Shown: piece by piece, positions 2,831 through 39,176 of the stretch | Layout: each line of letters begins with the position of its first letter | How positions within the stretch are numbered: the first letter of the stretch is position 1 | DNA from: Bacillales bacterium | GTDB taxonomy: Bacteria > Bacillota_I > Bacilli_A > RFN20 > CAG-826 | Reading direction: 5' to 3' | Assembly: GCA_052171195.1 (NCBI GenBank) | Contig: JBQMZB010000002.1 | Coordinates: 1,276-65,275, forward strand | DNA: 64,000 nt | The notes under the pieces: model-generated | Seen by the model: the letters and a program-made list of their open reading frames with translations, nothing else | Databases searched by the model: none | What the model was told of the DNA's origin: nothing | Translations under genes and position numbers: made by a program

Positions 2831-3252
2831 AAAATACCATTTTTTAATAGTTTTTTTATATATTTACTTATAACAATTTATAGATTGAATTAGCTTATAT
2901 GCTATGGATAGTATAACCATTGATGTTGTATGTAACTAGAGTTATTATCTTTTTGATTATAACAAAGTTAACTGAATTATTATCACTCAAAAAAATTTTG
3001 TTAGAAATAACATATATAATAAAACAAAGAAGTATATAGCAAGAATAGAAAGTGTTAAAAGGATTTTTTGGTATGTATAAAAATATTTATAAGATTAAAC
3101 GAAGTATATTGACAATTATATTATAAGGAAACAGTATATAAGTATGATTCTATAGATGGAAGATTATTTATTGTTACTAAAGATGGATATGTAGCATCAT
3201 ATTATTATGTAAAGAAAGGATTCTGGTATTATACAGAAAAAGAAAAAAGAGT

Positions 3253-24989: not shown

Positions 24990-25640
24990 ATGAATAATTT
25001 AGATGATTTAATTAAAATTATTTTTTCAGTAATATCTGTTATACTTGTTCTACTTGTAATCTTTATTATTGTATATCCTTTTATAAAAAAGAAATTATCT
25101 TTTAAATATTTTAAAAGAATATTTTATCATCAAATTTATAAGATAGCTTTATATAAAGACTATCTTTTAATTAATGAATTAGTATTAAAAAATGATGAAG
25201 GTAAAATATGCTCAATAGATCATATTCTTTTTGGTGAAAAATTTATTTATGTTATTAAAGATAGATATTATAGAGGTGCTTTAAGTGGCGAATATAAAGA
25301 TAACATCTGGTTTTTTTATAATAAGAAAAATGTTACAAAAGAAATTCAAAACCCAATGTTATTAAATGAAAAAAGAATTGAAAAACTTGCAAATGTTTTA
25401 CATTATGATAAAGGATTATTCATTTCTATTGTTATAGTTAATAATGATTGCACAGTTAAAAATCTTGATAATTTAAATCAAAATAATTCATATATAGTTA
25501 AGTTAAATAAACTTAAAAAACTTATTAAAAAATTAGAAAAAACTGATATAAGACCAATTAATCAAAAAGAACTTGAAGAAGCTGTTCTTATGATTCATGA
25601 ATTGAAAGGCAAAAAAATTAATGAAGACATCGAAATTTAA
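24990..25640 (+). CDS. Membrane-anchored NERD-domain (nuclease-related) protein
   Basis: N-terminal TM helix; IDHILFGEKFIYVIKDRYY...IWFFY pattern resembling NERD domains. Confidence 0.45.
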   Translation: MNNLDDLIKIIFSVISVILVLLVIFIIVYPFIKKKLSFKYFKRIFYHQIYKIALYKDYLLINELVLKNDEGKICSIDHILFGEKFIYVIKDRYYRGALSGEYKDNIWFFYNKKNVTKEIQNPMLLNEKRIEKLANVLHYDKGLFISIVIVNNDCTVKNLDNLNQNNSYIVKLNKLKKLIKKLEKTDIRPINQKELEEAVLMIHELKGKKINEDIEI

Positions 25641-26817
25641 TGATTTCAAATGTAACATTCAATTTTTATTTAAAGTTTATCAAAACAATTATTCAAGATT
25701 TATTCCAAAATTTGCAATCTACACCTGTATTTTTGTGTTAACTCTTGGATTTAGTTTTTATTCTTTATATCAATTTGTTAATACATATAATTTGTTTTTT
25801 TTCTTTATATATTCTATTTTTAATTTATTTATTATTCCTTTAATTTTAGAATTTTATATTTTAAGAATATTTTCTTTTACCAGTGTTTTATCTACGAATG
25901 ATTATAATGATATTTATGTTCCAAATTTCAATTTAGCTCTTATTAGAGTTATTGGAGCAGGTAAAATTTTTAGTTTAAAATTATTTTATTTCTTTTTATT
26001 TTTAATTTTTGATATATTCTTTGTTATTTTATATGTATATATAATCCCATTTAATAATTATTTAATATTAAATCATTCAATAAATTTTTTAAGTTTATTA
26101 AATAATAAAGAATTAATTATTCAATATTTTAATGCTTATAAAAGTAGTGAAGGTTTTTATCTAACTCATTCTATTAATTATCAACATCTCTATTTTTATA
26201 AAGCAATTATTTTAATTATATATATAATAGATCATCTATTTATTTTAGATTTTTCTAAAGATTCTAAATTAAGTAAATTTAAATTTATTAAAAAAATATT
26301 TCTTATAAGATTTAATGTTATAAAAGAATATTTTTTTGAACATTTTATAGTTATTCTTTTTGCTTTGTTAGCTCCTTTAATAAGTTTTGTATATTTTTAT
26401 GGACTACTTAGAATAAATAATCCTAATTTATCTACCTATGCGATAATGTTTTTATCTAATGTTTTATATTATTTTATAATTTTAAGATTTATTCCTTTAT
26501 TTTTATTTCTAAATAAAGCTTTTCAAATGCGTGCATTTGCAAAAGAGTTAATCATTACTTATAAAAAGAAGAATAAAAATAAAAAAATAAATAAAAATAT
26601 TAATATAAAAGATAATACTTTGGCTCTTCTTACAAAATTTAATAATTCTCCAATTACTTCAAAAGATTATTTTATATCATCACTTTTATATAGTATGGGT
26701 GATTATAACATGTTATTATTAGAAGTTATGATATCTCAAGATATCTTAGATTCATTCAAAATTAAAAATAAAGAAAGAAAAAATGATGATTGTACCGATT
26801 TAATAGAACCTTATTAA
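25621..26817 (+). CDS. Hypothetical polytopic membrane protein (extremely AT-rich, low complexity)
   Basis: 398 aa ORF, many hydrophobic segments, no motif. Confidence 0.35.
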   Translation: MKTSKFNDFKCNIQFLFKVYQNNYSRFIPKFAIYTCIFVLTLGFSFYSLYQFVNTYNLFFFFIYSIFNLFIIPLILEFYILRIFSFTSVLSTNDYNDIYVPNFNLALIRVIGAGKIFSLKLFYFFLFLIFDIFFVILYVYIIPFNNYLILNHSINFLSLLNNKELIIQYFNAYKSSEGFYLTHSINYQHLYFYKAIILIIYIIDHLFILDFSKDSKLSKFKFIKKIFLIRFNVIKEYFFEHFIVILFALLAPLISFVYFYGLLRINNPNLSTYAIMFLSNVLYYFIILRFIPLFLFLNKAFQMRAFAKELIITYKKKNKNKKINKNINIKDNTLALLTKFNNSPITSKDYFISSLLYSMGDYNMLLLEVMISQDILDSFKIKNKERKNDDCTDLIEPY

Positions 26818-26981: not shown

Positions 26982-28640
26982 ATGAATTATTCAAAATTAG
27001 CTAATTTAATATTTCCTAATATTAATTTAACTGTGTTAGATTTAGAAAACAAGTATCCAGCAAGAAATTTAAAAGAAGGAGCAAAAGTTACTAGATTTGC
27101 TCCATCTCCAACTGGTTTTTTACATACTGGATCACTTTTTACCAGTATGATTGCTAAAAAAATAGCGCATGATAGTAAAGGAATTTTCTATACAAGATTA
27201 GAAGATACAGATTCTAAAAGAGAGATTGAAGGAAGCGGAAATCTTTTAATTAAACAATTAAAAGAATTTGATTTATATCCAGATGAAGGATATTTAGGAA
27301 ATAATGAAGAAGGAATTTATGGTCCTTATAAGCAATCTTTTAGAAAAGAAATCTATCAGGTAGTTATTAAAGATATGATAAATAAAGGTATTGCCTATCC
27401 TTGTTTTTTAAGCGAAGAAGATTTAGTTAATTTAAGAAAAAAACAAGAAGAAAATAAAGAAATTACTGGAGTTTATGGAAAATACGCTATTTATAGAGAT
27501 TTAAGTGAAGAAGAATATATTAATTTAATTAATGAAGGTAGACGTTATGTTATAAGATTTAAATCTCAAGGTAATTTTAATAATAAAATTAAAATTAAAG
27601 ATGAAATTAGAGGAGAGCTTGAATTATCTCAAAATGAACAAGATGTTATCATAATGAAATCAGATAAACTACCTACCTATCATTTTGCGCATGTTGTAGA
27701 TGATCATTTTATGCATACTAATTTAGTTACAAGAGGAGAAGAGTGGTTATCTTCATTACCTATTCATCTTGAACTTTTTAAAGCATTAAATTTTAAAGCT
27801 CCAAAATACGCTCATCTTCCTGTTATAATGAAATTAGAAAATAATAATAAAAGAAAATTATCTAAAAGAAAAGACCCAGAAGCAAGTGTTGAATATTTTT
27901 TAAAAGAAGGATATGAACCTCAAGCTTTACTTGTATATTTAATGACTATAGCAAATAGTAATTATGAAGATTTTATTGTTTCAAGTAAAGATTATAATCT
28001 TGATCATTTTAAATTTAATCTTAAAAAGATGAGTTTAGATGGAGCCTTATTTGATAATGAAAAATTAAATTTCTATTCAAAAGAAATTTTATCTAAAATG
28101 GATAAAAAAACTATAAGTAGTAAGGCTTATAAATACGCGAAAGAATATGATAAAAATTTACTTAATTTTATTGAAAAAGATTATTCTAGATTTGAAGAAA
28201 TCATGAATATTGAAAGAGAAAGAAAAAATCCTAGAAAAGATTATGCGAAATATAGTGATATTTATGACGCTATTAAATATTTTGATCATGATATTTATTT
28301 AAAAGAAGTAAAAAAATATTCTTCTTATGAACTTAAAATTAATCAAGAATTAAAAAATAATTTAATTAATGAATATCTTAATATTGTTAAAGATTATTCA
28401 AGTGAACAAGAATGGTTTGAAGATGTTAAAATAGTTGCTTCTAAATTTAATTTCTGTGTAGATAATAAATTATATAAGTTAGATTCATCAAAATATAACG
28501 GAAATATTAATGATGTATGTGAACTTATTCGTGTTGCTATTACCAACCGCAAAGTAAGTTTAAATTTATTTATGATTATGAAGATACTTACTTTAAATGA
28601 AGTAAAAGATAGATTAACTATCTTTCTAAATAATAATTAA
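26982..28640 (+). CDS. gltX: Glutamate--tRNA ligase (class I; long C-terminal anticodon-binding extension)
   Basis: HIGH motif PSPTGFLHTGS, KMSKS motif KLSKRK; 552 aa. Confidence 0.85.
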   Translation: MNYSKLANLIFPNINLTVLDLENKYPARNLKEGAKVTRFAPSPTGFLHTGSLFTSMIAKKIAHDSKGIFYTRLEDTDSKREIEGSGNLLIKQLKEFDLYPDEGYLGNNEEGIYGPYKQSFRKEIYQVVIKDMINKGIAYPCFLSEEDLVNLRKKQEENKEITGVYGKYAIYRDLSEEEYINLINEGRRYVIRFKSQGNFNNKIKIKDEIRGELELSQNEQDVIIMKSDKLPTYHFAHVVDDHFMHTNLVTRGEEWLSSLPIHLELFKALNFKAPKYAHLPVIMKLENNNKRKLSKRKDPEASVEYFLKEGYEPQALLVYLMTIANSNYEDFIVSSKDYNLDHFKFNLKKMSLDGALFDNEKLNFYSKEILSKMDKKTISSKAYKYAKEYDKNLLNFIEKDYSRFEEIMNIERERKNPRKDYAKYSDIYDAIKYFDHDIYLKEVKKYSSYELKINQELKNNLINEYLNIVKDYSSEQEWFEDVKIVASKFNFCVDNKLYKLDSSKYNGNINDVCELIRVAITNRKVSLNLFMIMKILTLNEVKDRLTIFLNNN

Positions 28641-28712
28641 TTATTATTTTAATAATTAATATATAAAATTATATATAGATATTTAATTATATTTTATTTA
28701 TAATTTTATCAT

Positions 28713-28789
28713 GCCTCGTTGGAGAAGCGGCTTAACTCACATCCCTCTCAAGGATGCATTCACGGGTCCGAATCCCGTACGAGGTACCA
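28713..28789 (+). tRNA. tRNA-Glu with CTC anticodon (second Glu isoacceptor; borders the accessory island)
   Basis: Cloverleaf with 3-bp D-stem, closely related to the tRNA-Glu(TTC) at 49037, but the anticodon loop reads CTCTCAA; G1-U72 wobble; CCA encoded. Confidence 0.65.
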
Positions 28790-28928
28790 TTCTTAAGATA
28801 TAAAGATAATACAATAAGTATTGCCTTTTTTTAATTTTTAGCATAATCGTAAAAGTGTAAACGTAAAAAATATCCAGAATCGACAAGTTTATTCGAACTT
28901 TAAATAATATATTCAGGAGGTTCGAATA

Positions 28929-29151
28929 TGGAGAACAATAAATATTTAGAAGAATTCAAGATTGATCTTGTAAAACAGTATCTACAAGGAAAGCAGAAAA
29001 AGATATCTATATAGAATACGGTGTTGCGAAATCTGCAATGTGGGGATGGATATGTAAGTATACAAGCCTTATAGAAAAATCGTAGGATGGTAAAGGCATA
29101 AAAATTACTGAAGAAGAATACATTGACATTTATACCAATATAATTAAACAT
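28929..29151 (+). pseudogene. IS3-family transposase OrfA remnant (frameshifted, truncated)
   Basis: Translates as MENNKYLEEFKIDLVKQYLQGKQKK then, after frameshifts, EYGVAKSAMWGWICKY (HTH of IS3/IS150 OrfA); multiple stops; no OrfB follows. Confidence 0.5.
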
Positions 29152-29242
29152 TTATAAAATAAGCAGGCAGAGTAAAATCTCCCTGCTTTCAAAATGGAAA
29201 ATAATACCGGAAAATGGTATTATATTTTTAGGAGGAAATAAG

Positions 29243-30997
29243 ATGAGCAGTGGTTTTCAATCTCCAATTACAATTAAAGATGCAATAGATAACATCCATA
29301 ATAGACGATTTTTATTACCGGCAATTCAAAGAAAATTTACTTGGTCAAGTAATCAAATTGAGATGCTGTTTGATAGTATTATGCATGGATATCCGATTAA
29401 TTCTTTTATGTTTTGGAAGATAACAGATAATAAAATTAAAAGTGACTATAAATTCTATGAGTTTATAACTAGATATAGAGAATTTTTTTCGGAAAATAAT
29501 AGCGATATTGATACAAAGGGAGTTCCTGATTTCAAAGCAGTCATTGATGGACAACAAAGATTAACAAGCTTATACATTGGCTTAAGAGGTAGTTATGCAT
29601 ATAAAATGCCTAGAAAATGGTGGAAAGATACAGAAGAATGCATTCCTACTAGAGAATTATATTTAAATTTAATTTCACCTATAAATCAAGAATATGATAA
29701 TCAAAAGGAATTTGATTTTAGGTTTCTGTCAAAATTAGATTTAGAGAAATTCGATAAAGATAAAGATACATATTTTTGGTTTAGAGTCGGTGAAGTGTTA
29801 GACCTAGATACTATAAATAAAGTTTATAAATATCTAAATGATAATAAACTAATGGATAATAATTATTCTTCGTATACATTAGTTCAATTATTTCAAGTCA
29901 TTCATAATGACAAGTTAATAAATTATTATCTACAAGAAGAACAAGAAGCTGATAAAGTGCTTGAAATTTTTATTAGGACTAATAGTGGAGGGACACCATT
30001 ATCTTTTTCAGATTTACTTATGTCTATTGCTTCTGCTAATTGGAAACAGATAGATGCTCGTAAGGAAATAGAAAAATTAGTAGAGGAAGTTTATATAATT
30101 GGGCGTCCTGGTTTTATTATTGATAAAGATTTTGTTTTAAAAACTTGTTTAGTGCTCTTTATAGATGATATAAAGTTTAAATTAAAAAATTTTACACATG
30201 AAAATGTTAATGAATTTGAAAATAATTGGGGTAGAGTAAGACAAAGCATAATTGCAGCATTTTCTTTATTCGAATCTTTAGGATTTAATGATAAAACTTT
30301 TAGAGCAAAAAATGCAGCAATTCCAGTAATATATTATATCTACTATAACAATCTAGAAACATCTATTTCTAGTCCAATCTACAAGAATAAAAAAGATAAA
30401 GATAGAATAGCAAAATGGTTAATACTTACGTTTATTAAGTCGGTATTCGGTGGACAAACCGATACCGTTCTAAAGAAAATGAGAGATGTTTTAAAGGAAA
30501 ATTTAAATAAGGACTTTCCGGATAAAGAACTAATGAATGCTTTTAAAAATGATCCAGCAAGAAATTATAGTTTTGATGACGAATTTATAGATGGTTTATT
30601 AGAAGCAGAGAAAGATTCAAATAATGCATATTATATATTGCATTTAATGTATTCGAATTTGGATTTTTCAAACCAAGATTTTCATCAAGACCATTTACAT
30701 CCATCAACCATTTTCACTGACGAGAAAAAGTTTAATAAGTTCATTCCATGTGAAGTACAAGATTTTGCTAAGAAAAGAGAAAACTGGAATGGAGTTGCTA
30801 ATTTACAATTATTAAATGGAAGGCAAAATGAATCTAAGAATGCTAAGTCTCTTAAAGAATGGGCTTATTCGGAAAATAAAACACATGATGATTTATTTCT
30901 ATCTGATGGAATTAGTTTGGAAATAAAAGATTTTAAAGATTTTATTATTGATAGAAAAACAAATATAAAAAAATATATTAAAAGTATTATTGGATAG
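29243..30997 (+). CDS. GmrSD-family type IV (modification-dependent) restriction endonuclease, DUF262 + DUF1524
   Basis: N-terminal DUF262 motifs LPAIQRKFTW and DGQQRLTS; C-terminal DUF1524/HNH-like block HQDHLHPST...NLQLLNGRQNESKNAK. Confidence 0.8.
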   Translation: MSSGFQSPITIKDAIDNIHNRRFLLPAIQRKFTWSSNQIEMLFDSIMHGYPINSFMFWKITDNKIKSDYKFYEFITRYREFFSENNSDIDTKGVPDFKAVIDGQQRLTSLYIGLRGSYAYKMPRKWWKDTEECIPTRELYLNLISPINQEYDNQKEFDFRFLSKLDLEKFDKDKDTYFWFRVGEVLDLDTINKVYKYLNDNKLMDNNYSSYTLVQLFQVIHNDKLINYYLQEEQEADKVLEIFIRTNSGGTPLSFSDLLMSIASANWKQIDARKEIEKLVEEVYIIGRPGFIIDKDFVLKTCLVLFIDDIKFKLKNFTHENVNEFENNWGRVRQSIIAAFSLFESLGFNDKTFRAKNAAIPVIYYIYYNNLETSISSPIYKNKKDKDRIAKWLILTFIKSVFGGQTDTVLKKMRDVLKENLNKDFPDKELMNAFKNDPARNYSFDDEFIDGLLEAEKDSNNAYYILHLMYSNLDFSNQDFHQDHLHPSTIFTDEKKFNKFIPCEVQDFAKKRENWNGVANLQLLNGRQNESKNAKSLKEWAYSENKTHDDLFLSDGISLEIKDFKDFIIDRKTNIKKYIKSIIG

Positions 30998-31426
30998 TTA
31001 AATTATCATCAGACATAGTCCAAAGAAACATCCGCAGCCCAATTGTACATTCATATTTTAAAATTAATAACATGCTACAAAAAAGATAATTTGAGTCATG
31101 TATCAACTCGAATTATCTGGCCAGCAATACATAAAATCTAATTAATCATTCAAACATCATATCTTCTTGTCAGTGCACCATTAATGATGCTCTATTTGTC
31201 ATGCAATTTTAATGTGTTGATTACGATGATGTAGTCATCGCCACTATATTCAAAACATTTCTGTTTTAAAAACTTATTATTGACTTTTTCTAATAGTTAG
31301 TCTCATATTAAGGATACACCATTGAGACATTTTCAATTGATAATCACAATTTAGAAATAAAACTTCTATCAATTATTGATTATTCTCTCAAAATTGATTA
31401 TAATTTACGAGAAAGGATTAATAATT

Positions 31427-32476
31427 ATGAGAAAATTTGATTATTCTAAATTAAAATATCAAGTATGGGATTCTTCAATAATTAATAAAATTGCGCATAT
31501 TCATGAGCTAAAAGGAAGACAAGAACTTTATTTGTCACAAAAACCAGTAGAATTAAATAAATTAGTAGAACTTGTTAAAATTCAAAGTACTGAAGCAAGT
31601 AACGCTATTGAAGGTATAAGAACTACTGATACAAGATTAAAAAAGATTGTTAATGAAATAATAATTCCTAAGAATAGAAATGAAAAAGAAATAGCAGGAT
31701 ATCGAGATGCATTAAACACAATTCATTCAAGTTTTGAATATATTCCATTAACTCCTAACTATATATTACAATTACATCAAATATTATATAGTAAAAATGA
31801 TGAAGTATCATATGGTGGTAAATTTAAAAATACTCAGAATTATATAAGTGCCACTGATAAAAAAGGCAATTTATTTACTTTATTTACTCCAATGTCTCCA
31901 TTTGAAACTCCAATAGCTATTCAAGCATTATGCGATGAATATAATAAAGCTATCGAAAGAAAAGAAGTAGACCCATTAATTTTAATTCCAATATTTATAC
32001 ATGATTTTTTGTGTATTCATCCATTTAACGATGGGAACGGAAGAATGTCTAGATTACTTACTACACTTTTATTATATCGTTCAGGTTATTATGTTGGTAA
32101 ATATATATCACTAGAATTAAAAATTTCTGAACTTAAAGATTTATATTATGATTCGTTATATGAATCACAAATAGGTTGGCATGAAGAAAATGATAATCCA
32201 GCTCCATTTGTAAACTATATATTAAGTATAATTTCAATGGCTTATGATGATTTTGAAAATAAAGTAGAGGTAGTTACTAAAAAACTTAGTGCATATGATA
32301 CTGTTAAAAAAGCAATAGATATGAAACTTGGTAAAATTACTAAATCAGATGTAGCAGAATTATGTCCATTATTATCATTAAGTTCAATTGAAAAAGTATT
32401 AGCTAAAATGGTAGAAGAAGGAAGACTTGAAAAAGGTGGTTCAGGTAAGAATTCATTCTATATTATAAAACTATAA
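31427..32476 (+). CDS. Fic-family protein (AMPylase/adenylyltransferase) with C-terminal winged-helix
   Basis: Fic motif HPFNDGNGRMSRLL (HPFx[DE]GNGRxxR); RBS GAAAGGA before the ATG at 31427. Confidence 0.85.
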   Translation: MRKFDYSKLKYQVWDSSIINKIAHIHELKGRQELYLSQKPVELNKLVELVKIQSTEASNAIEGIRTTDTRLKKIVNEIIIPKNRNEKEIAGYRDALNTIHSSFEYIPLTPNYILQLHQILYSKNDEVSYGGKFKNTQNYISATDKKGNLFTLFTPMSPFETPIAIQALCDEYNKAIERKEVDPLILIPIFIHDFLCIHPFNDGNGRMSRLLTTLLLYRSGYYVGKYISLELKISELKDLYYDSLYESQIGWHEENDNPAPFVNYILSIISMAYDDFENKVEVVTKKLSAYDTVKKAIDMKLGKITKSDVAELCPLLSLSSIEKVLAKMVEEGRLEKGGSGKNSFYIIKL

Positions 32477-33300
32477 CTTTAACTTATTAATACTTTACAT
32501 TTTCGAGATGACTCTCCGCTTCAAGAAACCGAGACGTTATATAAATTAGAAATTTTATAATCATTTAAAATAAATTTAACATCAACTTGTACTTTTCACT
32601 TGTATTTTTGGTGTACAGTATAATTTTATCTAATTTTTCTTTATTTATTTTATTTTATATAAATTGATATTGATTAGTTTGGATGTTTTTTTTAATTAGA
32701 ATATCAAGAAACAGTTTTGCTAATTAATCTAGCATTTTACGATAGAAAAGATATTGATTTAAATATATGTTTATTTTGTACATTTGTTATATGTAATACT
32801 TTTGACTTTATTATATATAACACTTTTTAAGCATAAAATACAAATATTTATTACCACTTAAATTAATATAAGTGGAAAATACCCAAGTTTTAAATAAAAT
32901 AGTAAATATTATAAGAATATTTTTAATTTTACATAAACATATAAAATTAAAATATGCTACAATAATTATGCGCAATGAGAATATTTCTGGGTGTAGATCC
33001 TTCGTTGCGCAAAACTATAGGTATACCCCCTTTTTTATTGATGAACAGCATGTCTACAATTATTACTAAAATAACTTGTGTATTTTCTAATTTTTATTGT
33101 ATACTATAAATGCGCAACGAAGATAACCACGTCATATGGTTCCACCCAAAAAGGTCTAAATAATTAGATCTGAGTAGGATTATGTATACCGATAGTACGA
33201 CGAACGTACTGAAATGAAAGAAGATTATTATTTAATAACAGGGATAATTCTATCTGTTTTACGTTCTTTATCATTTCAATTAGAAAGGAGTATAAGAAAA

Positions 33301-34007
33301 TGAAATACTAATTTTTTGATTTAGAGTGTTCTAATTGTTTTGGAGGTAATAATAAGGTATGTGAATTTGGTGCTATTGTTACAGATGAAAATTTTAAGAT
33401 TGTTAAAAAAATTGATTTACCGATGAATCCTGGTAAAGGTAAATCGTGCAGATTTGATACTTCTATATATAAAAGAAACCCAGGTTTTAAGTGGGCTTAT
33501 GATTTTGATTATTATTTTAATAGTCCTAAGTTTCCTGAATTCTACAAACAAATTAAAAACATTATGGAAGATAAAGATACTGTTGTGTTTGGATATGCTG
33601 TAGATAATGATATTAGATATCTAAATAGTGCTTGTATGCAATATAATCTGAAACCTATATCTTATATTGCATACGATGTTAAATTAATTAAAGAATCTTG
33701 TTTTAAAAAGAAACAAAAAGTTAAAGGTTTAAAAGGAGCTTTTTTAGAATTGTGCGGGTTGAAAAAGTTATTTAGCTTGACACCACATCTTTCTATAGAT
33801 GATTCTAAGATGACGATGATGATTTTTAAGCAAATCTGCAAAAATATGACAATTTCTGTAGTTGAAATTTTAGATTTATGTAATAACTGCAAAATAGATT
33901 CTATTAAATATATAGAAAAATATGAAATACAACAAAAGGAAAAATTATTACATCCAGAAAAATATATTAAAAAAAGAAAAATAAATACAAATTGTAAAAC
34001 CGCTTGA
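33301..34007 (+). pseudogene. DnaQ-like DEDDh 3'-5' exonuclease gene interrupted by an in-frame TAA at codon 4 (or using an unidentified non-canonical start)
   Basis: ATG 33301 with RBS GAAAGGAG, then MKY-TAA-FFDLECSN (Exo I DxE), YAVDNDIRYL (Exo II), HLSIDDSKM (Exo III H-x4-D), all in one frame with the ORF-track ORF 33423..34007. Confidence 0.55.
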
Positions 34008-34267
34008 AAAACTTCTACAAAGATTATTAGCAATATTAGATATTAAAAATAACAATTATATCTAATAAGTTAAAATCAGTAGAAAAAAGCGAATATAACG
34101 CTAGATTATCTAAAAAATAATAATCTATCCACTTATAATCAAGCTCCTGATTTTAACTATTTATTTGAATTAAATGATAGTAAAAATAGGTAATTATCTA
34201 AACTTAAATATATATTTATGATTTAAATTAGTATATCCCAAGATTTAATATAAGGAAGGAATAAATT

Positions 34268-36781
34268 ATGAACTTAGAGTTTAATCTAAAATTATCTTCA
34301 TATAAAGATATTAATGAAGATTTCTTAAATATACTTCGTGATGATGAATATCATGATGTTAAAATATCAACAACTAAAAAAAATATTGAAATAGATAAAA
34401 AAGATTCGAGGTATATCAGCTCTCTAAAAAATGTTAAAATTATTTATAAAAAAGAAGATGGTGGTATTCTTATTTTAATTGGAAACCTTCAATGTGATTT
34501 TAAAGATCCGTTTGGTGGAGCTTTCTTTTTAAAAAAATATGTACAAGAAACTACTGAATTTGAAGATGTAAAAGGAGTTAATGCTAAATTAAAATTTGGT
34601 AATATGTATTTTCCAACATCAATAGAATATATGCGAGATTATATGCAAGATTTGGTAGAAGATCCTAATTTTGAATTTAACATAAGTCAATTTGATGAAT
34701 TTATGGAAATTTTTGAATTCTATAAAAAACTATCTGATGAATTAAATAATAATTTTTCTTATAAAATTAATGGTATTTCTAAAGAATATTACTTTATCCA
34801 ACCTAATGTAAAAGAATTTGACTCTAATTCGGTAAAAGAAGTAAAAGATCAAAATGGAGTTATCAAAGGATATAAAATAGATAATAGTGACTATGTTCTT
34901 TTAAAAAATTATGTCAAAGATCAAGTTAAAGAACTTGTAGATATAAGAATTTCTGGTGGAGCAGATGAAATATCGAGAATAAGAAGAGTTGGTCTAGATA
35001 ATATCTATCTAAGCAATTCCTCAAGAGTTAGTGAAAAAGAAGTTAAATATTTAAAACAGTTCATAATTTATAATATTGTTATTATGAAAAATGAAGTTGT
35101 AATTTCTGGTGAATTAAAATCATCAGCAGATTACAAAGAACGATATGAATATTTAAATCTATATGATATGGGGCAAAAGATAAAAATTGAATCTGTTGAC
35201 AATTCGTTAAGATTAATTAATCAAGGTGCAACTGGCGCTGCTTCAAATTTATTACAATATTTAATTGGTGATGTTAAAATGCCAAATAATATTCATAGAA
35301 CAAGTAAGATTAAAGAAAAATATATGGAAGGTTTAAATGAATCTCAAAGAAAAGCTTTCTTAATGTCTATTGATGGGAGCCCAGTATCACTTATTAAAGG
35401 TCCTCCAGGAACAGGTAAAACACATGTAATAAACTCAATTGTTCAATATATAACAAAAGAATTGGGTGAAAAGGTTATCATATCATCTCAAACTCATATT
35501 GCAATTGATAATGTCTTAGATAAATTGGTGGAAAACTACGATTTAATTATTCCGAATAGAATTACAAACAGAAGAAATAAATATAGTGGTGACTATATTG
35601 ATGATACATTATATAAAATTTGGGGAGTAAATTTTTTTAAATATAATGCAAAATGTTCAGATTTAAAGTTAAAGAAAAATATGGAAGAATCTGTTATAAA
35701 ATTTGATGGTGAAAAAAAATTCTCATATTCAGAAACAAATGAAAGATGTGATTTTTCTGTTATAGGAGCTACAACAACTACTAGCGCAATAGCTGGAAAA
35801 AAAGGGTTAGAAGTTCTTAAAGGTTTTGATTGGTTAATTATAGATGAAGTTTCAAAATGTCCAATTACAGAAGTATTACGATACATTCCTTATGTAAATA
35901 GAATAATTATGGTCGGTGATGATTTCCAATTAGCGCCTTTACTTGAATTTTCTAAAGAAGATGTGAAAGGATTACCATCATATAACGAAGAATTATTTCA
36001 AAAACTTCAAACAATCTATGAACAATCTGTTTTTTCAAAAGTACTTAATAAGGCTAAAGATTCAAATAGATTAGTATTACTAAATGAAAACTATAGGTCA
36101 GTTAATCAAGTATTAAAAACATACAATGTGTTTTATGATGGTGCTCTCAAAGGAAAAAGAGAAGATATATGCCCTTCAAAAGTTCATATATATCAATCTG
36201 GAGATATAGATTATGATTCAAAAGATGTAATGTTTGTTGAAGTGGTTGGAGGACAAGAAGTTAAAGAAGGTACATCAAGAGTTAACGTTCAAGAAATTGA
36301 AGCCACTGCTTATATATTAAAAGATTTAATAAAATACACTATTAACCCTGAAAAAGTTACCGTTTCTGCAATATTCCCGTATGCTGCACAAATTAATCAC
36401 TTTCATAAAAATAATATTCAACTAATTAATCAAGCTAAGAAAGTATTTAAATCTTTCGAGATTGACACTATTGATGCTTTCCAAGGAAAAGAAACAGATA
36501 TAGTTCTTGTTAATACCGTTGTTGCAGATTCATCACAAAAAAACTTTTTAAATGATTTTAGACGAATTAATGTTTCTATGTCAAGAGCGAGAGATAAGTT
36601 AATATTATTTGGAAACAGTATGGTACTTAAAAAGATAAAGATGAAAATAAATGGTGGTCATGAAAGACAATATTTTGAGCAAATAATCAATTATATTTCA
36701 TCACATGGCAATTTTATTAGATATGAAGGAGGAAATGTTAATAGTGGAAATACACGCAAAAGTAAGATTAAACTTGCCTAA
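34268..36781 (+). CDS. Upf1/DNA2-like superfamily-1 helicase with about 370 aa N-terminal domain of unknown function
   Basis: Motif I GPPGTGKTH, Ia SSQTHIAIDNV, II LIIDEVSK, then DAFQGKETDIVLV and VSMSRARDKLILFG (motifs V/VI of Upf1-like helicases); no similarity recognised in the N-terminal third. Confidence 0.8.
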   Translation: MNLEFNLKLSSYKDINEDFLNILRDDEYHDVKISTTKKNIEIDKKDSRYISSLKNVKIIYKKEDGGILILIGNLQCDFKDPFGGAFFLKKYVQETTEFEDVKGVNAKLKFGNMYFPTSIEYMRDYMQDLVEDPNFEFNISQFDEFMEIFEFYKKLSDELNNNFSYKINGISKEYYFIQPNVKEFDSNSVKEVKDQNGVIKGYKIDNSDYVLLKNYVKDQVKELVDIRISGGADEISRIRRVGLDNIYLSNSSRVSEKEVKYLKQFIIYNIVIMKNEVVISGELKSSADYKERYEYLNLYDMGQKIKIESVDNSLRLINQGATGAASNLLQYLIGDVKMPNNIHRTSKIKEKYMEGLNESQRKAFLMSIDGSPVSLIKGPPGTGKTHVINSIVQYITKELGEKVIISSQTHIAIDNVLDKLVENYDLIIPNRITNRRNKYSGDYIDDTLYKIWGVNFFKYNAKCSDLKLKKNMEESVIKFDGEKKFSYSETNERCDFSVIGATTTTSAIAGKKGLEVLKGFDWLIIDEVSKCPITEVLRYIPYVNRIIMVGDDFQLAPLLEFSKEDVKGLPSYNEELFQKLQTIYEQSVFSKVLNKAKDSNRLVLLNENYRSVNQVLKTYNVFYDGALKGKREDICPSKVHIYQSGDIDYDSKDVMFVEVVGGQEVKEGTSRVNVQEIEATAYILKDLIKYTINPEKVTVSAIFPYAAQINHFHKNNIQLINQAKKVFKSFEIDTIDAFQGKETDIVLVNTVVADSSQKNFLNDFRRINVSMSRARDKLILFGNSMVLKKIKMKINGGHERQYFEQIINYISSHGNFIRYEGGNVNSGNTRKSKIKLA

Positions 36782-38192
36782 AACTTTGTATAAATTAACT
36801 TTAAAATACAATACTTTTGAAAAAGCTACATATGATTCGTATATAATTGCTTGTTTAGTTGCAAATACTAAAAAAGAAGAACAAGCTTATAAATATATAG
36901 ATGAAATTACAGGTAAAGGATCATTAAATTCTCATTTTAAAAAGCTATATGATAGTATTTCGAAATTTACAAAAGATCAGATAAATGATATTCTTGTAAA
37001 TTCCTTATTTCCAATCACTGTTATAAATAAAGAACATTGTTTTGAGTACTATCAAATATTTGATGTAACAAAAATGGGGAACAAAGTCTATGAAGGGAAT
37101 CTTATTGACAACCTAGAAGATATTAGAAAAATAATTTTACCTGTTGATAAAGATATTAAATTTGTAAGTTTAGATTATATTCAAGAAGATGGTGAATTAA
37201 AACGTGATAATTACAACGCGATATTTAGTAAAGAAGGAATAAAAGTTGATCTTTTAGATGGAAAGTATTGTTCAATAAGTAAGGAAGATTTTTCTACTGT
37301 ATATAAAAATGATATTGATACATTAGATGGTTATTTAGGATCTATAGGAGAAACTATATCTGATGGAAACTGGAATGTCCTTTCTAAAGAAATTATAAAT
37401 ACTTTTAAAAATGAACGATATAAATTTAACGATTCTAAAGGTAGACATTGTGTTTTAACAAATGATTTTATTAAAACGTACGAAATTATCAAGGTATTTG
37501 ATTTGTATTTTTACAAACGAAACAAATTTATGTTCGATAAAAATAGTAAAGCACTTTGTGAAGATGCGGTAGAATATCTTTTCAGCTCTAAAAATATCAA
37601 CGAATATAAAACAAAATATTTAATAAACTTATTATCTTATGTTGATGATAAAATTAAACAACAAGTTGTTCAGTATATATTAGATAGAAAAGATTCTAAA
37701 GAAATAAGCCAACTCGGATTAAGTTTAATTAAATCAGGTTTAGAAAAGGGATGGGAAAAAGATATTCTTATTTCAATTAAGAAACAAATTTCATCATCAG
37801 ACTTACAATATCTTTATAGATTAAATAAAGATTTAGGATTTGAAGTAGAGGATTTACTTAATATTGATAAAACCGATCTAAACGAAGAAGACTTAAAGAA
37901 AATAAACAAATATTTATGCGACAAAGAAAATATATTAAGACAAATAAATTTATGGATTGGTGAAATTACGAATTCAGGTATTAGAGAACAGATTAAAGCT
38001 TTAAAAAAATCTGATCTTAAAATTAGAGTTAAAAAATTTGTTGATAAGCGTACTGGACATAATAAGTTAGATTATAAAAGTATGGATATGAATAGACTTA
38101 AAAAAGAATATGAAGAAATTAAATACTTCTATAATGAAGATTTTAATTTAATTAAAAAAGAAATTTCAAAACTAAATGTGCATTCTGTATAA
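36705..38192 (+). CDS. Hypothetical protein, partner 2 of the helicase module (overlaps the helicase 3' end)
   Basis: 495 aa ORF overlapping the helicase stop by about 75 nt; strong AAGGAGG inside the overlap, so the real start is probably at about 36717-36729; no recognisable domain. Confidence 0.5.
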   Translation: MAILLDMKEEMLIVEIHAKVRLNLPKTLYKLTLKYNTFEKATYDSYIIACLVANTKKEEQAYKYIDEITGKGSLNSHFKKLYDSISKFTKDQINDILVNSLFPITVINKEHCFEYYQIFDVTKMGNKVYEGNLIDNLEDIRKIILPVDKDIKFVSLDYIQEDGELKRDNYNAIFSKEGIKVDLLDGKYCSISKEDFSTVYKNDIDTLDGYLGSIGETISDGNWNVLSKEIINTFKNERYKFNDSKGRHCVLTNDFIKTYEIIKVFDLYFYKRNKFMFDKNSKALCEDAVEYLFSSKNINEYKTKYLINLLSYVDDKIKQQVVQYILDRKDSKEISQLGLSLIKSGLEKGWEKDILISIKKQISSSDLQYLYRLNKDLGFEVEDLLNIDKTDLNEEDLKKINKYLCDKENILRQINLWIGEITNSGIREQIKALKKSDLKIRVKKFVDKRTGHNKLDYKSMDMNRLKKEYEEIKYFYNEDFNLIKKEISKLNVHSV

Positions 38193-38387
38193 AATGATAC
38201 TTATAATAATTAATAAATAACAACCTTAATAAAAACGTTGTTTAAATTTTACATCATTGATGTATTGTATTACATTGTTCTATAACAAATGATAAAATAT
38301 TATATAATATATTTAATAATTATATTTCTTTAATTATAATTTATTAAGAAATAATAAATAAATAAATAAATACAAAAGGAAATTATT

Positions 38388-39176
38388 ATGATTACATGTG
38401 AACCAACTAAAAATTTATCAGGAATAATTGTCAGAGGTACTATGGATGATTTTGAAGAATTAGTTGATAGTATCCATAGAATGGCCATAGGTGATGTTCT
38501 TGAAAAACCTAAAAATATTGATTATTATTACGAAATAAAAAATAGACTATTAGGTTTATGCTACGATATTAGAAAAGCTGCGATGGGACATAGGGATGTA
38601 GAACTTGTTGACGTACATTTCAGCGAATTTTTAAATGTATATAATAAAAATAAATTACCTAAGAAAGAAATATATTTTTCATTTAATATTATAATTACAG
38701 AGGCTTTATTTCTTGCATTAGCTGTACCTGAAATTTATCAAAGACAACGTTTATGTTACAGTGGATTCCCTAAAAGTATTCCTCCAAAATATAATTTAAA
38801 AGCACCTGAATGTTATCTTTTTTACAAAGATAGAGCATTAATTAATTCGTTATTAACTAAATTCCTTGTTGTTATCGGTAAAATACTTGGAGAAGAAGAA
38901 TTTTATAAGTTGTATAGTAAATTAGATTATGATTATATGTATATTTTTCATGATTATTTTACACCTTATGTTGATAAATGTAATTTAGAGTATTTAAATA
39001 CTCCATATGAAAAAAGAAAAACAAAACTTAAGCATATTATGAAGAGATTTATGAGGAATAATGAATCTTATATATCATTTAAAAATAAATTTGAATATCT
39101 AGCCAGAATAGATAAATGTAATGTAAATGATTTAAGCCAGTACTATTTCATTTATCCTTATGTTATAGAATGGTAA
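38388..39176 (+). CDS. Hypothetical protein, partner 3 of the helicase module
   Basis: 262 aa ORF with RBS AAAGGAAA; one internal hydrophobic helix; no recognisable domain. Confidence 0.5.
   Translation: MITCEPTKNLSGIIVRGTMDDFEELVDSIHRMAIGDVLEKPKNIDYYYEIKNRLLGLCYDIRKAAMGHRDVELVDVHFSEFLNVYNKNKLPKKEIYFSFNIIITEALFLALAVPEIYQRQRLCYSGFPKSIPPKYNLKAPECYLFYKDRALINSLLTKFLVVIGKILGEEEFYKLYSKLDYDYMYIFHDYFTPYVDKCNLEYLNTPYEKRKTKLKHIMKRFMRNNESYISFKNKFEYLARIDKCNVNDLSQYYFIYPYVIEW

Follow-up and report, generated by a model that had tools for sequence, protein, structure and literature searches.

We consider, at a probability of roughly three in four, that the window (the whole stretch of 64,000 nucleotides analyzed here) contains a genuine DEDDh exonuclease pseudogene that died in two steps, in which the tail of the protein was lost first and a recent nonsense mutation at codon 4 followed. 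The stop codon itself is ordinary, whereas the module beside it and its RNA elements merit separate attention. As a routine correction of the annotation, 33300-34267 should be flagged as a pseudogene, and the 194-aa 'hypothetical protein' called within it recognized as the tail of a broken exonuclease.

The exonuclease gene is interrupted at an invariant leucine codon

From position 33300 the plus strand of the window reads ATG AAA TAC TAA TTT TTT GAT TTA GAG TGT TCT AAT, which by direct reading gives a start codon (33300-33302) and a residual mini-ORF, MKY-stop (33300-33311), closed by TAA at 33309-33311. A Shine-Dalgarno sequence, AAAGGAG (33284-33290, plus strand), lies 9 nt 5′ of the ATG and aligns with that of the intact gene in L001, the closest relative; the 40 nt before the start, Shine-Dalgarno sequence included, are nearly identical in both. 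An earlier note on this DNA had correctly read MKY followed by TAA at codon 4, with coordinates that are one base too high for the stop (33310-33312), and had placed the ATG at 33301, from where translation would be out of frame. Its description of an open frame past the TAA with three DnaQ-family motifs was borne out: the frame reads through 231 codons as far as TGA at 34005-34007, and the DnaQ-like DEDDh exonuclease domain that it encodes (codons 5-235, 33312-34004, plus strand) is intact in frame and untranslatable from the start codon.

Alignment of the segment MKY-x-FFDLE with 39 orthologues, a check that the note had proposed, showed that it is conserved without the stop: position 4 is Leu in 39/39, L4, F5, F6, D7 and E9 are invariant, and all N-termini read MK(Y/F/x)LFFD. 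Codon 4 is TTA or TTG in each of the six orthologous DNAs inspected (L001, L003, L004, L005, L007 and L088), and the region around it reads ATGAAATACTTATTTTTTGAC in L001 versus ATGAAATACTAATTTTTTGAT in the window. Read against these sequences, the TAA is a single T-to-A transversion at 33310 within the TTA codon of Leu4. Since the orthologues carry Leu at codon 4 and the 5′ UTR and Shine-Dalgarno sequence are shared with L001, the stop lies in a mutated orthologous start region and does not mark an alternative start. The gene has, accordingly, a premature stop at an orthologous sense codon with its start retained.

The next usable start is Met42 (33423), which has no Shine-Dalgarno sequence and no AGGAG upstream and whose product lacks both Exo I carboxylates, so that no active exonuclease should be made from it. 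Translation would now yield Met-Lys-Tyr alone. The 194-aa ORF that begins at Met42 (33423-34007, plus strand), without Exo I, is an annotation artefact shared by the ORF lister and NCBI, where the product is entered as 'MAG: hypothetical protein ACTTID_02400 [Bacillales bacterium]'; that the ORF track starts at this internal Met and drops Exo I had been seen before. The 194-aa product and the 837-aa helicase encoded downstream have two NCBI accessions each, which for the former means that at least two deposited assemblies are without an ORF extending 5′ of Met42; the two MAG records concerned include the proteins MGP1413957.1 and MGP1546900.1. A scan of JGI metagenomes for a DNA pattern that left codon 4 free (NNN) yielded 0 matches, and the best match to the locus in GTDB representative genomes, in which a second copy was sought, was 46-58% identical.

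The family has a DnaQ-like fold and a divergent sequence

The window frame contains FFDLECSN (D7, E9), VDNDIRYL (D104) and HLSIDDSKM (H163, D168) in the correct order. These five residues are invariant across 39-41 orthologues, and all 23 family-invariant residues besides Leu4, the five among them, are kept in the window copy. The read-through product scored 22.7 bits against Pfam RNase_T (PF00929), for which the cut-off is 24, with model positions 2-164 of 164 aligned; a precomputed PF00929 match exists in three homologues, and the PADLOC DEDDh model gave 22.8 bits, aligned over the full domain. A search of 5.8 billion proteins yielded 61 relatives, nearly all of 313-338 aa, the best being 70% identical.

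For structural comparison the window copy was represented through P0002, its closest intact relative, an orthologue for which AlphaFold returned a model with a pLDDT of 90.5. Foldseek matched this model to the DnaQ domain of S. thermophilus (8h18, E 5e-8) and to Pol III epsilon, 3′hExo, ExoI, Cas2-DEDDh and SaDinG (2gui, 1w0h and 2ido included), each at a probability of 1.0 and with TM values of up to 0.8 on target. At the level of the predicted structure, the RNase H-like DnaQ fold of the family is established. In sequence, all solved members are distant from the family, judging by its best PDB sequence match (E 0.011). Two closer assignments were rejected, namely DNA polymerase III epsilon proper (17 bits against equivalog NF004964, with a cut-off of 236) and the CRISPR-associated Cas2-DEDDh (no cas genes nearby, and a PADLOC DEDDh match at just the score given above).

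The C-terminal domain is frameshifted and decayed

In the relatives, residues 250-325 are folded, according to the P0002 model, into a small beta-alpha-beta-alpha-beta domain. Its assignment as BRCT was tried, and weak BRCT or BRCT_2 matches (E 1e-3 to 3e-2) were found in two of 29 members; a PDB profile search with the domain returned nothing convincing, and the label 'BRCT-like' is unproven.

Orthologues are 315-338 aa long, and the window frame ends about 95 codons short of them. By tblastn and frameshift-aware alignment of P0002, P0004 and P0008 with 33300-34290, a whole gene of about 330 aa is recognizable up to 34268. When aligned with the codons of L001, L003 and L007, the TGA at 34005-34007 (plus strand) arises from a 1-nt deletion in the conserved Trp236 codon, which puts the following sequence in frame -1 (TGG AGA AAC TTC in L001 versus TGA AAA ACT TCT in the window); TGG AAA AAC thereby turned into TGA AAA AC. 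The same alignments identify 34008-34267 (plus strand) as a decayed remnant of the C-terminal alpha/beta domain, with TAG at 34028 and 34037, a +1 frameshift near 34085, and TAA at 34191, 34224 and 34251. The 3′ part has at least 7 lesions in about 265 nt, versus 1 in the 705 nt of the exonuclease domain; multiple disabling lesions and the loss of a domain are added to the premature stop. Neither the incomplete length of the open frame nor the remnant in the next 260 nt had been mentioned in the earlier note.

Genetic code 4 (TGA as Trp) was also considered. A conserved Trp stands exactly where the window has the TGA at 34005, which is also the point at which P0005 ends, yet this code was rejected because of the accompanying frameshift, the later TAG and TAA stops, the further stops and frameshift of L007 and the five long ORFs that TGA closes in the window.

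In L007 (283-1250) the C-terminal domain was lost by other mutations: the codon for the same Trp has been substituted (TGG to TGA), and a TAG, one further stop and a frameshift are present as well. The exonuclease ORF left there, of 226 aa, has an intact start, the helicase is intact, and the exonuclease is 61% identical to the window copy and closer to P0004. As judged from these lesions and identities, the loss in L007 is independent of that in the window. A third disrupted copy, cut after residue 111, was observed in L031 (6001-6327), an uncultured Bacillales MAG, with no helicase nearby.

Probable order and timing of the two losses

Measured against L001, dN/dS was 0.10 for exonuclease codons 5-235, 0.10 for the helicase and 0.16 for protein X, the product of the gene that follows the helicase; dS is saturated (1.3-1.8), which makes these values rough. 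At the lesion density of the 3′ part, simple arithmetic predicts about 19 lesions in the 705-nt exonuclease domain, where 1 was observed, and an old truncation followed by a recent knock-out of codon 4 is therefore the simplest history. The dN/dS of 0.10, together with the retention of all other invariant residues, argues that the TAA is very recent. A very recent nonsense mutation making a pseudogene was among the explanations offered in the earlier note. The invariant Leu4, the TTA or TTG of six orthologous DNAs, the 5′ UTR and Shine-Dalgarno sequence of the L001 type and at least 7 further lesions bear out the pseudogene; the dating fits the TAA and fails for the gene as a whole, which had been truncated long before.

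From these data we infer the order of events and the past activity of the truncated enzyme as follows. In intact relatives the gene encodes a protein of about 330 aa, made of the exonuclease and the small C-terminal alpha/beta domain, and stands first in an operon with the helicase and X. The 1-nt deletion in the Trp236 codon would then have cut off the C-terminal domain, leaving it to decay freely, while purifying selection appears to have continued on the 235-codon exonuclease domain, whose truncated product presumably still worked as an enzyme. Very recently, the T-to-A change at 33310 would have converted the TTA of Leu4 to TAA.

The other explanation that fares best, though an unlikely one, is that the TAA stems from a mistake in sequencing or assembly, or from a minority allele fixed in the MAG consensus, and that the organism makes an active truncated exonuclease of 235 aa. 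The sequence does derive from a MAG, the exonuclease domain looks fully selected by its dN/dS and its invariant residues, L007 offers a natural truncated version of 226 aa with an intact start, and the signs that date the TAA as recent would also arise from an error. Single-base substitutions are, however, rare in assembled consensus, and the change is a T-to-A substitution, not a change in homopolymer length, in a context that is not prone to length errors. Moreover, the identical 194-aa call, which needs a block 5′ of Met42, has its two NCBI accessions, which may or may not be independent records, beside the two of the helicase.

Far less probable is that the whole gene has long been dead and that its lesions cluster in the 3′ third by chance. 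Lesions are indeed many when the whole gene is counted, and the window exonuclease domain is slightly more diverged than its sisters, its identity to nine outgroups lying 2-6 points below that of the sister sequences. This would nevertheless leave one lesion where about 19 are expected, in a domain that has kept every invariant residue other than Leu4 and whose dN/dS equals that of the intact helicase.

Recoding, whether by stop read-through, a suppressor tRNA, reassigned stops or the non-canonical initiation just past the TAA that had been proposed earlier, is the most improbable explanation of all: the start signals are intact and the frame past the TAA is open for 231 codons, but no in-frame ATG, GTG or TTG was found between 33312 and 33422 (before Met42), the one TTG close by (33316) lies in another frame that closes after two codons, the invariant L4, F5, F6, D7 and E9 span the TAA, the Shine-Dalgarno sequence would stand 21 nt from codon 5, TAA is the normal stop in this window of about 23% G+C (closing 37 of 46 long ORFs, with TGA closing 5), none of the window's 7 tRNAs is a suppressor, and the TGA at 34005 does not read as Trp under code 4, as set out above. 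A programmed frameshift or reinitiation after the MKY-stop was rejected for lack of an in-frame start, the TTG at 33316 leading to a stop as described.

A helicase and protein X form the constant core of the locus

The exonuclease pseudogene is followed on the plus strand by an intact gene with its own Shine-Dalgarno sequence (34268-36781), which encodes an SF1 helicase of 837 aa, Upf1/MkoA-like (AAA_11/AAA_12) by Pfam, NCBIfam and PADLOC, and then by an intact gene for protein X (36744-38192, plus strand; 482 aa from GTG 36744, the start given by NCBI and by the family consensus). The start of X is ambiguous between this GTG and ATG 36705 (495 aa, ORF lister), and both overlap the 3′ end of the helicase gene, as in all relatives. 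The helicase is 80% identical over its full length to that of L001, and X is 69% identical. Protein X has about 97 cluster relatives; it had no match in Pfam, NCBIfam, PADLOC or PHROG and no PDB sequence match, and its model (pLDDT 91) had no fold match in the PDB, the best Foldseek E being 0.07.

The order exonuclease-helicase-X is kept in L001, L003, L007 and L092, with genes that overlap or abut, and the exonuclease gene stands directly after X in Acholeplasma laidlawii (L088) and in L095, L097, L104, L109 and L112. That the association of exonuclease and helicase is kept through rearrangement argues for a functional link. Helicase and X adjoin in every locus that could be judged, and the exonuclease is adjacent to them in about 12 of some 28 distinct loci. 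Elsewhere, the gene in the slot before the helicase encodes a protein of 462 aa, one of 114 aa or one of 140 aa, the last sometimes joined by a CNYRCTYC radical-SAM enzyme, and 80 loci of the exonuclease family in GTDB representative genomes are without this helicase. The constant core is thus the 837-aa SF1 helicase with the 480-aa protein X, and the exonuclease is facultative. The earlier note had taken the exonuclease for a possible fourth component of a helicase module; the link stands by synteny, as that of a facultative partner to a two-gene core and not of an obligatory fourth member.

Several loci showed particular arrangements. In A. laidlawii (CP103951, a culturable organism; L088 3162-9401) we observed E1 (2813-2873 of L088) and E2 (2931-3044), the RNA elements described below, followed by the genes of a 148-aa protein and a radical-SAM enzyme and then by those of the helicase, X and the exonuclease. 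The radical-SAM enzyme has the viperin-like CNYRCTYC motif, and the same family occurs beside exonuclease homologues in L074 and L005/L006, where the helicase is absent. In two close relatives, L093 (508-1896) and L094 (150-3283), the 462-aa protein occupies the slot of the exonuclease, and in L094 a Fic-domain gene lies just 5′ of E1, as in the window.

The core was found in defence islands of gut and rumen Bacilli, Clostridia and Acholeplasma. In the window, the island of 10.7 kb (28800-39359) lies between gltX with tRNA-Glu(CTC) (26982-28789) and housekeeping genes from 39359, and contains a GmrSD/HEC-05 enzyme (29243-30997), SoFic (31376-32476), the exonuclease pseudogene, the helicase, protein X and a DUF6904 protein; the last, downstream, is not conserved beside the module. 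The tRNA-Glu(CTC) gene (28713-28789) follows gltX directly and flanks the island, and no att-type repeat of its end (≥12 nt) was found at the far side. Outside the island, at 24990-26817 and 5′ of a tRNA-Gly gene and gltX, the gene of a NERD-domain protein (216 aa) overlaps that of a 398-aa protein without family match; the two may be another small defence pair.

A conserved pair of RNA elements precedes the helicase-X operon

Two elements lie on the plus strand between SoFic and the dead exonuclease gene, and the pair was seen 5′ of every helicase-X operon examined. The first, E1 (32969-33033), is small-RNA-like, with a hairpin (TGCGCAATGA / TCGTTGCGCA) and segments complementary to the second; a -10-like TGcTACAAT precedes it at 32955-32963. 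Its covariance model (R2) scored 86.6 bits in the window and recurs 5′ of helicase-X operons in 15 loci. The second, E2 (33111-33216), is a structured 5′ leader with four hairpins, whose model (R1) scored 106.2 bits in the window and matched the plus strand of 20 helicase-X loci. Before E2 stands a degenerate sigma70-like promoter (CTTGTGT at 33074-33080 and TATACT at 33100-33105; TTGACA-17-TAtAAT in relatives), and several relatives have a hairpin and T-run terminator between E1 and E2. The models also match both elements 5′ of distant helicase-X operons (A. laidlawii, L103, L105 and L107), and neither gave a match in loci with the exonuclease only.

The stretch 32940-33300 has 68-82% nucleotide identity to 13 loci whose X proteins are just 37-70% identical. 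In the window the first 12 nt of E2 can pair without mismatch with the 3′ arm of E1, and perfect complementarity of the first 12-16 nt of E2 to E1 was found in 14 of 14 loci, despite at least 9 sequence variants. When the hairpin of E1, three hairpins of E2 and two helices between E1 and E2 were scored together over ten sequences, 94.7% of the cells were paired, as compared with about 30% for slid partners; double changes occurred in 14 of 42 pairs, and 0 of 500 shuffles reached this result. An alternative 13-bp helix, to which E1 contributes its 3′ arm and E2 its 5′ end, was 99% paired with four covarying pairs, RNAalifold gave 8 covarying pairs on E2, and invariant G-U pairs place E2 on the plus strand. 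Since single-sequence folds were no better than shuffles (z -1.6 for E1 and -0.5 for E2, not significant), the structural case for both elements rests on covariation. Rfam 15 gave 0 matches at E≤1 in 32300-34400, and at the gathering score it yielded tRNAs only over the whole window.

Collectively, the pairing patterns suggest that E1 is a small RNA that would base-pair to the operon mRNA at its 5′ end and gate expression; as an alternative, E1 and E2 could form a single switching leader with no separate E1 RNA. In L001 (9600-9815) E2 is intact and E1 is degenerate, so the small-RNA partner can be lost from an intact operon. The small ORFs that overlap the RNA region of the window (32872-33069, 32947-33051 and 32975-33109) are spurious.

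A possible RNA-controlled module and the place of the exonuclease in it

We tentatively propose, as an idea somewhat more likely to fail than to hold, that the dead exonuclease is the trace of an immune-like module, so far undescribed and under RNA control, that consists of E1, E2, a swappable first gene, the SF1 helicase and protein X. In intact relatives, helicase, X and exonuclease would be co-expressed under control of the RNA pair, the exonuclease plausibly trimming 3′ ends that the helicase exposes and its C-terminal domain plausibly serving to dock it onto a partner. The docking domain would have been lost first in the window, with the catalytic domain just silenced, and helicase, X, E1 and E2 left intact. 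Loss of the exonuclease has probably left the core module functional, by analogy with natural loci that have none. A defence role of the operon, and hence of the module, is suggested by its neighbours and by the MkoA-like score of the helicase.

If this proposal is right, the window and L007 are natural experiments in which the exonuclease has been shed repeatedly while the core of helicase, X and RNA was kept, and the C-terminal docking domain is the first part of the exonuclease to go. That two independent lineages have lost the exonuclease step by step would in this way provide a hypothesis on which parts are essential. Should the core be anti-phage, it would represent a rare helicase-based system under dedicated RNA control, and A. 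laidlawii (CP103951) has a full version of the module in an organism that can be cultured.

Comparison with known systems

With the DnaQ-like DEDDh exonucleases (epsilon, 8h18, Cas2-DEDDh 8fy9/8fyc, 3′hExo/ERI1 and ExoI) the family shares the DxE, NDxxY and Hx4D motifs and the fold, at just 11-18% sequence identity. It differs from them in having its own C-terminal alpha/beta domain and a Cys-rich ECSNC motif, and the window copy differs further in being a pseudogene.

Mokosh systems consist of the MkoA helicase and the MkoB PLD nuclease, or of the fused MkoC. The core of the 837-aa helicase resembles MkoA (237 bits against the PADLOC model, E 1e-70), and the setting in a defence island is shared. 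The match is, however, limited to the helicase core (residues 275-813 versus model positions 540-1101), no PLD domain was found in the exonuclease, X or flanking genes, and the partners, X and the DEDDh exonuclease, match no PADLOC system model. Assignment to Mokosh was rejected, the MkoB PLD nuclease not having been found. The literature was searched for a defence system that combines DEDDh and helicase, or a Upf1-like protein and ncRNA, and nothing matching was found; no description of the helicase module or of its RNA elements appears to exist in the libraries and literature searched.

Pairing of a DEDDh 3′-5′ exonuclease with a helicase is also seen in WRN and in the DinG of S. aureus, in which the DEDDh domain is fused to the helicase (PMC12345164); SaDinG structures (8zef, 9ii8) are among the fold matches. 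Unlike SaDinG, the locus described here encodes separate proteins and its helicase is SF1 of the Upf1 type, not SF2 DinG, and in contrast to both pairings its exonuclease is dispensable and mobile in position within the operon.

In type I toxin-antitoxin loci, such as par of pAD1, a small RNA is complementary to an mRNA leader. E1 and E2 would resemble such RNA pairs in that a short RNA with its own predicted promoter and terminator is complementary to, and co-varies with, the 5′ end of a neighbouring mRNA. They differ from them in lying in tandem on the same strand and in preceding an operon that encodes a helicase and not a small toxin peptide.
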